DNA of 64,000 nt from a virus (IMGVR_UViG_2939127364_000001); one strand, 5' to 3'. Shown: positions 7,858-9,300, numbered from the stretch's first letter. The notes: a model not told the origin generated them from the sequence alone. Translations and numbers: made by a program.

Positions 7858-7915
7858 TGGCGGTGAGGGGGGGGATTCGAACCCCCGATACGTTGCCGTA
7901 TACACACTTTCCAGG
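7858..7915 (-). pseudogene. 3' portion (~57 nt) of tRNA-Ser(GGA), serW/serX-like, truncated at IS1 end
   Basis: Minus strand reads CCTGGAAAGTGTGTATACGGCAACGTATCGGGGGTTCGAATCCCC...TCACCGCCA, matching the recalled anticodon-to-3' end of E. coli tRNA-Ser; the 5' half is absent; 2-bp junction ambiguity with IS1. Confidence 0.7.
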
Positions 7916-7969
7916 TAATGACTCCAACTTATTGATAGTGTTTTATGTTCAGATAATGCCCGATGACTT
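7914..7969 (-). mobile_element. IS1 terminal fragment (~56 bp), inverted relative to the complete IS1, interrupted by IS2
   Basis: GGTAATGACTCCAACTTATTGATAGTGTTTTATGTTCAGATAATGCCCGATGACTTT matches the IS1 end; sequence then switches to the IS2 left end. Confidence 0.85.
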
Positions 7970-8060
7970 TAGACTGGCCCCCTGAATCTCCAGACAACCA
8001 GTATCACTTAAATAAGTGATAGTCTTAATACTAGTTTTTAGACTAGTCATTGGAGAACAG

Positions 8061-8426
8061 ATGATTGATGTCTTAGGGCCGGAGAAACGCAGACGGCGTA
8101 CCACACAGGAAAAGATCGCAATTGTTCAGCAGAGCTTTGAACCGGGGATGACGGTCTCCCTCGTTGCCCGGCAACATGGTGTAGCAGCCAGCCAGTTATT
8201 TCTCTGGCGTAAGCAATATCAGGAAGGAAGTCTTACTGCTGTCGCCGCCGGAGAACAGGTTGTTCCTGCCTCTGAACTTGCTGCCGCCATGAAGCAGATT
8301 AAAGAACTCCAGCGCCTGCTCGGCAAGAAAACGATGGAAAATGAACTCCTCAAAGAAGCCGTTGAATATGGACGGGCAAAAAAGTGGATAGCGCACGCGC
8401 CCTTATTGCCCGGGGATGGGGAGTAA
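8061..8426 (+). CDS. insC: IS2 InsC
   Basis: [41 protein letters not shown]... Confidence 0.9.
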
Positions 8427-9289
8427 GCTTAGTCAGCCGTTGTCTCCGGGTGTCGCGTGCGCAGTTGCACGTCATTCTCAGACGAACCGATGACTGGATG
8501 GATGGCCGCCGCAGTCGTCACACTGATGATACGGATGTGCTTCTCCGTATACACCATGTTATCGGAGAGCTGCCCACATATGGTTATCGTCGGGTATGGG
8601 CGCTGCTTCGCAGACAGACGGAACTTGATGGTATGCCTGCGATCAATGCCAAACGTGTTTACCGGATCATGCGCCAGAATGCGCTGTTGCTTGAGCGAAA
8701 ACCCGCTGTACCGCCATCGAAACGGGCACATACCGGCAGAGTGGCTGTGAAAGAAAGTAATCAGCGATGGTGCTCTGACGGGTTTGAGTTCCGCTGTGAT
8801 AACGGAGAAAAACTGCGGGTCACGTTCGCGCTGGACTGCTGTGACCGTGAGGCACTGCACTGGGCGGTCACAACGGGGGGTTTCGACAGTGAAACAGTAC
8901 AGGACGTCATGCTGGGAGCAGTGGAACGCCGCTTTGGCAGCGAGCTTCCGGCGTCTCCAGTGGAGTGGCTGACGGATAATGGTTCATGCTACCGGGCGAA
9001 TGAAACACGTCAGTTCGCCAGGATGTTGGGACTTGAACCGAAGAACACGGCGGTGCGGAGTCCGGAGAGTAACGGAATAGCAGAGAGCTTCGTGAAAACG
9101 ATAAAGCGTGACTACATAAGTATCATGCCCAAACCAGACGGGTTAACGGCAGCAAAGAACCTTGCAGAGGCGTTCGAGCATTATAACGAATGGCATCCGC
9201 ATAGTGCGCTGGGTTATCGCTCGCCACGGGAATATCTGCGGCAGCGGGCCAGTAATGGGTTAAGTGATAACAGGTGTCTGGAAATATAG
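8384..9289 (+). CDS. insD: IS2 InsD (transposase catalytic frame)
   Basis: 301 aa ORF overlapping insC within IS2. Confidence 0.9.
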
Positions 9290-9300
9290 GGGCGAATCCA

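Follow-up and report, generated by a model that had tools for sequence, protein, structure and literature searches.

A complete IS2 joined to a 56-bp IS1 remnant in an SSU5-like phage-plasmid of Escherichia coli, probably formed by recombination between two IS2 copies

Results

Backbone and boundaries of the cargo region

The DNA analyzed here is a 64,000-nucleotide viral sequence (IMGVR_UViG_2939127364_000001), which is called the window in this paper and is numbered from its first base; NZ_JBWDPM010000001.1 matches it at the same coordinates with 100% identity. The window starts with the repA gene and the iterons of an E. coli SSU5/pHCM2-like phage-plasmid. Positions 1–1831 are 89% identical to Salmonella phage SSU5 and 99.5% identical to IS-free E. 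coli relatives, and the SSU5-like backbone picks up again at position 10379 in the SSU5 alignment, so that the guess made in a preliminary description of this DNA, that the replicon is a phage-plasmid, was correct. The region from 1831 to 10379 is an IS-bounded accretion within this backbone. On its left side, the remnant of a cra-like backbone gene (1666–1830, minus strand) is cut by an IS1, and the alignments with SSU5 and with the IS-free E. coli relatives stop at 1830/1831; pNT1F34-108k aligns over 1–1831, and its 213-nt ORF is intact. On its right side, a terminal remnant of an IS3-family element (10144–10338, minus strand, about 195 bp) adjoins the SSU5-like backbone. The alignment with pBL12EC-1 starts at 10146, and the remnant is annotated as a partial IS3 family transposase in the plasmid of strain I3. 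This remnant, whose end reads TGAATCGCCACGG..., is widespread on enterobacterial plasmids and is common to the pBL12EC-1-type plasmids, and its terminal 53 bp were found again at 100% identity in pYPE3-114k.

The window lacks about 2.9 kb of the SSU5 backbone between 1831 and 10379 (L003, 3841–6720), namely the rest of cra, four small ORFs, a ninX-like gene, an SPFH/band-7 gene, and part of a further small ORF. Part of this loss is attributable to older events at the cra::IS1 anchor and the IS3-family remnant. An Rfam scan of positions 1–12000 returned zero matches. Several other features were recorded outside the accretion. A 779-aa ORF on the minus strand (10495–12834), annotated in relatives as a LAGLIDADG homing endonuclease, stands where SSU5 has its 358-aa RecA-like recombinase, with which it aligns over one end; based on this position and the one-end alignment, the ORF probably represents a recA gene that contains an intein. 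Four tRNA genes (Ser-TGA, Thr-TGT, Tyr-GTA, and Asn-GTT) are clustered in the backbone at 27016–27669 on the minus strand. Finally, a 77-nt direct repeat occurs four times at 42297–43381 (68–100% identity, with a 120-nt spacing in three) within a 1548-codon minus-strand ORF, one of three very large ORFs at 40823–57421.

A complete IS1 anchored in cra

The left boundary of the accretion is a complete IS1 (1831–2598, plus strand) of 768 bp, with both ends present, terminal inverted repeats of approximately 23 bp, and insA/insB; it is annotated as an IS1A-family transposase in an identical relative. The preliminary description stated that this copy lacks a target duplication, and its flanks, GGCACGCCA and TATTAATCT, indeed contain no direct repeat of 9 bp (8–10 bp). 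The left junction of cra::IS1 was found in nine complete-genome records with three different right-hand cargoes: the fimbrial operon of the window, an unrelated small ORF in the pBL12EC-1-type plasmids, and a 13-kb defence-type island in plasmid p1 of strain I3 (hereafter I3 p1). This island contains a WYL fragment, an SNF2 protein, a DNA methyltransferase, a DEAD helicase, and a PT-dependent restriction fragment. Because the relatives share the cra anchor and differ in their right-side cargo, the lack of a duplication around the complete IS1 is accounted for: the IS1 in cra is a fixed portal, the cargo of which is swapped by IS1–IS1 recombination or adjacent deletion. The right flank of the complete IS1 would have been exchanged through such IS1-mediated events, in a manner analogous to the flank loss of IS2 described below. 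The portal (1666–2598 in the window) also occurs in the relatives L001 and L028.

The complete IS1 is itself a mosaic, with 12 variant sites clustered at 2439–2580 in its 3' part, and these variants are common only to one IS1 copy of the ET350 plasmid. They also resemble an IS1 variant beside fecI in ETEC4090. Compared with the module copies on IncF and P1-like plasmids described below, the complete IS1 of the window meets the fimbrial DNA 98 bp further inward. In the 324-kb plasmid of ET350 (L008, 9285–10060), the window-type IS1 variant adjoins IS2 at window position 8353, which is consistent with a later IS1-mediated adjacent deletion that took the fimbrial operon and the IS1 stub together with 383 bp from the start of IS2.

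The fimbrial module and its IS1 stub

The DNA to the right of the complete IS1 is module cargo consisting of a yehD-like chaperone-usher fimbrial operon and a downstream spacer (2599–7857, plus strand). The operon encodes, all on the plus strand, a major subunit (2816–3364), a chaperone (3421–4098), an usher (4226–6712), and an adhesin-like subunit (6727–7737), with Pfam matches to PapD_N/PapD_C, Usher/PapC_N/PapC_C, and Fimbrial. A 108-bp MITE-like insertion at 4116–4228, with terminal inverted repeats of 16–17 bp (GAAGATGCGAATAAGT and ACTTATTCGCACCTTC) and a 5-bp duplication (TTATG), lies exactly at the usher start codon; the operon copies on IncF and P1-like plasmids lack it, and it occurs once within the window. 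The operon is followed by the 3' 56 nt of a tRNA-Ser(GGA) gene (7858–7913, minus strand), which matches E. coli tRNA-Ser genes and is cut by the right-hand IS1; ARAGORN detected no intact tRNA at 7858–7913. Immediately beyond lies the IS1 stub, the terminal 56 bp of the IRR end (IS1 nt 713–768; 7914–7969, minus strand), which is inverted relative to the complete IS1. Positions 7914–7970 match the IS1A-type right end at 57 of 57 bases, and because T7970 is common to IS1 and IS2, the stub is counted as 56 bp. The only other copy of this end in the window is at 2542–2598 on the opposite strand, with one mismatch, and no such match arose by chance in 100 shuffles.

The segment 1831–7970 recurs with 98–99% identity in IncF plasmids (pEC416_1) and in P1-like IncY phage-plasmids (pBS15R-A_1). 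In both, the module ends in a complete IS1 that is inverted relative to the left copy, and the tRNA-Ser–IS1 junction is identical to that of the window; L005 and L006 each contain the two complete inverted IS1 copies together with this junction. Because the exact junction is shared, the 56-bp stub is what is left of the right-hand, inverted IS1 of an IS1–fimbrial operon–IS1 module, namely its inner end. The idea that the stub is a leftover of the neighborhood of the complete IS1 was rejected, as it belongs to a right-arm IS1 that is intact in other plasmids. The window does not contain the two complete IS1 copies of a composite transposon, and, because its right arm is only the 56-bp stub, the fimbrial module is immobile there as an IS1-bounded unit. 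Neither of the two intact copies examined has a 9-bp duplication at the outer ends of the module (L005, CGAAAAAGC and CGTTACTTA; L006, TGTACATTC and GCAGGCTTT), so transposition of the module as a unit is unproven, and it may have moved by IS1 homologous recombination rather than by transposition. In the P1-like plasmids, the module lies between the tail-fibre-assembly genes and lydAB, and it was observed there in both orientations.

On the chromosomes of Escherichia whittamii and Escherichia sp. E1V33, the operon is located upstream of an intact tRNA-Ser(GGA) gene (L022/L023). Compared with the window, the usher and adhesin genes of the chromosomal operon are 94–96% identical, and the subunit and chaperone genes are 77–78% identical. 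The sequence comparison indicates that the module was captured from an Escherichia chromosome beside tRNA-Ser(GGA).

The IS2 element and its junction with IS1

The stub is followed by a complete IS2 (7970–9300, plus strand) with an imperfect terminal inverted repeat (left end TAGACTGG..., right end ...AATCCA) and intact orfA (8061–8426, Pfam HTH_Tnp_1) and orfB (8384–9289, Pfam rve/rve_3/HTH_21), both on the plus strand. An A6G slippery site at 8378–8384 is consistent with the two-ORF, −1 frameshift organization of IS2, and identical copies elsewhere are annotated as intact with a programmed frameshift. The element resembles K-12 IS2A in its length of 1331 bp, its ends, its two ORFs and their domains, and its slippery site, and the two are colinear end to end with no terminal loss. 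It differs from K-12 IS2A in being a mosaic isoform of about 97% identity, with 34 differences, 32 of which lie to the right of approximately 8560. The preliminary description had reported an IS1 end of about 56 bp followed by a complete 1331-bp IS2, and these limits proved to be exact to the base.

It had also stated that IS2 has no target duplication. The flanks are GACTT on the left and ATGAA on the right, and when the IS1 and IS2 boundaries were compared for overlooked 9-bp and 5-bp direct repeats, neither pair repeated. Identical copies of this IS2 elsewhere, in contrast, make 5-bp duplications; because the missing duplication reflects a secondary rearrangement, it is no argument against membership in IS2. 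Five complete E. coli plasmids and CP142569.1 (PLSDB) contain the identical IS1–IS2 junction, each matching without interruption, and these plasmids came from pigs and poultry in Cuba, the UK, and China. The junction arose once, in a plasmid lineage that is now on three continents.

The IS2–ORF junction and a sister plasmid

As previously described, the sequence from 9301 onward is not IS1. Instead, a 237-codon ORF that encodes an N-terminal hydrophobic anchor occupies 9301–10014 (plus strand), and its ATG begins at the first base past IS2. The ORF belongs to no Pfam family, and the sole plasmid homologue found is a distant one in Klebsiella variicola (44% identity). It is present in only seven complete E. 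coli genome records; the right end of IS2 precedes it in all seven, and the junction is constant irrespective of the sequence to the left of IS2.

The sister plasmid I3 p1 (L007) has an IS2 at the identical site and in the same orientation, flanked by an intact 5-bp duplication, ATGAA. Its junctions read ...TTTAATAATGAA–IS2–ATGAAATTTGTT, and the left side can also be read as ...GAGGTTTAATAATGAA–IS2–ATGAAATTTGTT.... To the left of this IS2 lie 107 bp of native, non-IS upstream DNA that differ from the window, and the duplication restores the context of a ribosome-binding site followed by ATG, placing the insertion in the ORF start codon behind the ribosome-binding site. This arrangement shows that, in an ancestral SSU5-like plasmid, IS2 inserted into the ORF start codon and duplicated ATGAA. 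Because the duplication is intact at the same site in I3 p1, the comparison identifies the right junction of the window (9300/9301) as original and the left junction (7969/7970) as secondary, and the ATGAA at 9301 is the kept right copy of the original target duplication. Since I3 p1 retains native upstream DNA at this place, the left IS2 flank of the window was replaced. The uninterrupted empty site, GAGGTTTAATAATGAAATTTGTTAAAAAAGC, had no exact match in the IMG/VR or JGI metagenome contigs. With regard to the ORF itself, the insertion displaced its native ribosome-binding region (GAGG-N7-ATG in I3 p1); the window reads ..TAGGGGCGAATCCA directly before ATG, and any expression of the ORF would depend on read-through from IS2.

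These data also bear on the main proposals of the preliminary description. It had suggested a comparison with related phage-plasmids lacking the insertion in order to define what was deleted, and I3 p1 retains at least part of it: the 107 bp and the left ATGAA, both lost in the window. The same-site IS2 of I3 p1 also supports the suggestion that the remainder of IS1 and neighboring DNA were lost through IS-mediated deletion or recombination. The description of the locus as an IS2 nested in an IS1 was upheld only in part. A simple nest, with IS1 on both sides of IS2 and a 5-bp duplication, is not what is found, since the right junction is the original one with the ORF; an insertion of IS2 into IS1 is nevertheless inferred for the history of this lineage.

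A mosaic IS2 in the window

When the IS2 of the window was compared with that of I3 p1, 22 substitutions and 2 indels were found in 7970–8544, and only 3 substitutions in 8545–9300. The maximum chi-square breakpoint is at approximately 8545, a value reached by 5 of 2000 permutations. The left part (to 8544) is similar to K-12 IS2A, with 2 differences, and the right part (from 8578) carries 8578A, 8618A, and 8620G, as in the I3/L020 subfamily. Furthermore, 9294G is confined to I3, the window copy, and derivatives of the latter, so that I3 is the only independent copy to share it. Full-length, 1331-bp elements of the I3 type form a genuine IS2 subfamily (L020 and L021), and an I3-type element is thus a plausible original inserter. 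A single crossover between an I3-type IS2 at the ORF and a directly oriented, K-12-like IS2 to its left explains both why the sequence type switches and why the left flank was replaced.

Other mosaics with a K-12-like left part and a variant right part were found in L016–L018, in which the switch is located further right (8620–8734), and 8881T and 9052G of the window are shared with L019 and not with I3. IS2 copies are a recombining population, and because mosaics exist elsewhere, the window-type IS2 could predate the event and have been inserted in its present form. The mosaic structure alone was accordingly dropped as direct proof of a local crossover, and the argument now rests on comparing the window copy with the IS2 that occupies the identical site in I3 p1. 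The I3 copy has two private indels, and it may be the altered one, changed by gene conversion that kept its flanks; the second IS2 of the model proposed below would then possibly be a local hop of the resident element, and the process would still have had two steps.

At ≥ 99.9% identity, the window-type IS2 was found only in window-type plasmids and in a few chromosomes, so the hybrid is rare. Two of these chromosomes (MB53 and HCP6S3_I1) belong to hosts that carry the plasmid. Copies with 100% identity and 5-bp duplications are located on the chromosomes of HCP6S3_I1 (L010, ATTAT) and CUPF06 (L011, GAGCG). Given identical chromosomal copies with fresh duplications, one of them in a plasmid-carrying strain, the IS2 of the plasmid appears to have been active recently. 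This fits a hybrid IS2 that was made on this plasmid lineage and then transposed.

IS2 insertions at the same position of IS1

On the chromosomes of ETEC4090 and A_5, the right end of IS2 is followed by GACCT-TGTCATG..., so that IS2 lies at the same IS1 nucleotide and in the same orientation as in the window; the IS1 and IS2 variants at this junction differ from those of the window. In NRZ106056, a complete IS2 is nested in IS1 at a distance of 6 bp with the duplication CCCGA, and this is a true nest. Position 56 of IS1 is thus a real IS2 target, and because the site was hit elsewhere, an IS2 could have sat at this nucleotide in the lineage of the window. The window, the ETEC4090/A_5 type, and NRZ106056 represent three independent events in the same orientation and within 6 bp. 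It is tempting, though doubtful, to generalize from them that the IRR-proximal 50–56 nt of IS1 form a favored, orientation-specific site through which IS2 recurrently disables IS1-bounded modules and trims phage-plasmid cargo. If this were true, IS2 would be a recurrent "IS1 killer," with cargo trimmed through IS2–IS2 recombination. Targeting through a resemblance of IS1 to the inverted repeats of IS2 was rejected, as the terminal 110 bp of IS1 gave a local alignment score with the IRL/IRR of IS2 that was no better than those of shuffled sequences. A locus in TOP10 in which IS2 adjoins an IS1 terminus was set aside because the stretch looked scrambled.

Formation of the left junction

We consider that the left junction was probably formed in two steps, by insertion of a second IS2 into IS1 and subsequent homologous recombination between the two IS2 copies. 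The IS1–fimbrial operon–IS1 module, anchored at the IS1 in cra, would have been located to the left of the ORF-side IS2. A second IS2 in the same orientation would have entered the right-hand IS1 of the module 56 bp from its inner IRR end, at the target GACTT. Recombination between the two direct copies, with a crossover at approximately 8545–8577, as the mosaicism suggests, would then have excised the intervening DNA: 712 bp of IS1, anything beyond it, at least 107 bp upstream of the ORF, and the left ATGAA. The product would be a single hybrid IS2 with GACTT on its left and ATGAA on its right, and no duplication surrounds it because the two flanks stem from two different insertions. It is well established that IS copies can end up with no target duplication after recombining with one another (PMC11708052). 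The predicted right junction of the progenitor (the end of IS2, GACTT, and the rest of IS1) had no single-piece match in PLSDB, and in complete E. coli genomes it had such matches only at unrelated chromosomal loci; no progenitor with the fimbrial module and a complete IS1::IS2 nest was found in either collection.

The main competing explanation requires only one step. The IS2 resident in the ORF would have attacked GACTT in the IS1 of the same molecule, causing a transposase-mediated adjacent deletion through a tandem (IS2)2 dimer with an IR–IR junction or through aberrant intramolecular strand transfer, so that its left end was joined to IS1 nt 56. The deletion endpoint coincides exactly with the left terminus of IS2, as this would predict, and the IS1 site is demonstrably an IS2 target. 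In addition, copy-out-paste-in elements, including IS2, form dimers whose IR–IR junctions give rise to deletions (PMC9333248), and adjacent deletions are documented as a cause of missing duplications (PMC11708052). However, IS2 normally transposes by copy-out through a minicircle, without altering the flanks at the donor site (PMC3299598), and neither the window nor its relatives contain an IS2 dimer or an IR–IR junction. The one-step model would also need an extra event unrelated to the deletion, for example a gene conversion in the I3 lineage, to account for the abrupt change at about 8545 between the IS2 copies of the window and I3. We therefore regard a one-step origin as rather unlikely.

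In the literal form of the nest, a complete IS1 would have received IS2 and would later have lost its distal 712 bp, together with the neighboring DNA, through a deletion that started at the right end of IS2 and brought the ORF up against it. Elsewhere, IS2 is indeed nested in IS1 at this position or close to it, but in I3 p1 the identical IS2–ORF junction comes with the ATGAA duplication and the ribosome-binding region of the ORF, and the same right junction is found in 7/7 of the complete E. coli records with the ORF. Since 9300/9301 is the original insertion junction and not a deletion endpoint, we exclude this history as very improbable. Repeated IS sequences are prone to mis-assembly, and one unrelated region of TOP10 looked scrambled, but a mis-joined assembly is hardly conceivable here, because the same uninterrupted junction is present in at least six independent complete assemblies from different countries and hosts and lies in a unique context, 56 bp from non-repeated DNA.

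Discussion

IS1, IS2, and IS elements that have lost their duplications after IS–IS recombination or deletion are all known, and the joining of the IS1 stub to IS2 does not define a novel type of element but is an ordinary recombination or deletion scar at a hot spot for cargo. The closest parallels to the proposed route are the cases from the E. coli long-term evolution experiment (PMC11708052), in which an IS likewise has the flanks of two insertions and the intervening DNA was lost. The present case differs from them in that the parental isoforms differ, so that the crossover is visible, and in that one of the parental sites lies inside another IS. The fimbrial module is similar to Tn9-like IS1 composites in that two IS1 copies bracket passengers and the module occurs on unrelated backbones (IncF, P1-like IncY, and SSU5-like). 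Unlike in the Tn9-like composites, the passengers are a fimbrial operon and a tRNA-Ser fragment, the IS1 copies are inverted, the outer 9-bp duplication is lacking in two intact copies, and the right arm in the window is only 56 bp long. In comparison with IS1A-type IS1, the window has a 56-bp end on the right and, on the left, a complete copy with a variant 3' segment and no duplication.

For the biology of these replicons, the slot between repA/cra and recA in E. coli SSU5-like phage-plasmids is a site of IS-driven cargo exchange, which contains fimbriae in the window, a defence island in one sister plasmid, and other genes in a third plasmid. The finding matters little beyond bookkeeping, and its value for annotation is that the fimbrial module in the window should no longer be regarded as mobile as an IS1-bounded unit, while the hybrid IS2 appears still to be active. 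What is mildly new is that a crossover is visible inside IS2, that the same IS1 nucleotide was hit by IS2 more than once, and that IS1 has carried a fimbrial operon of chromosomal origin to three plasmid types, namely the IncF, P1-like, and SSU5-like backbones. The locus also offers a clean natural example in which an IS–IS crossover can be located within the element.
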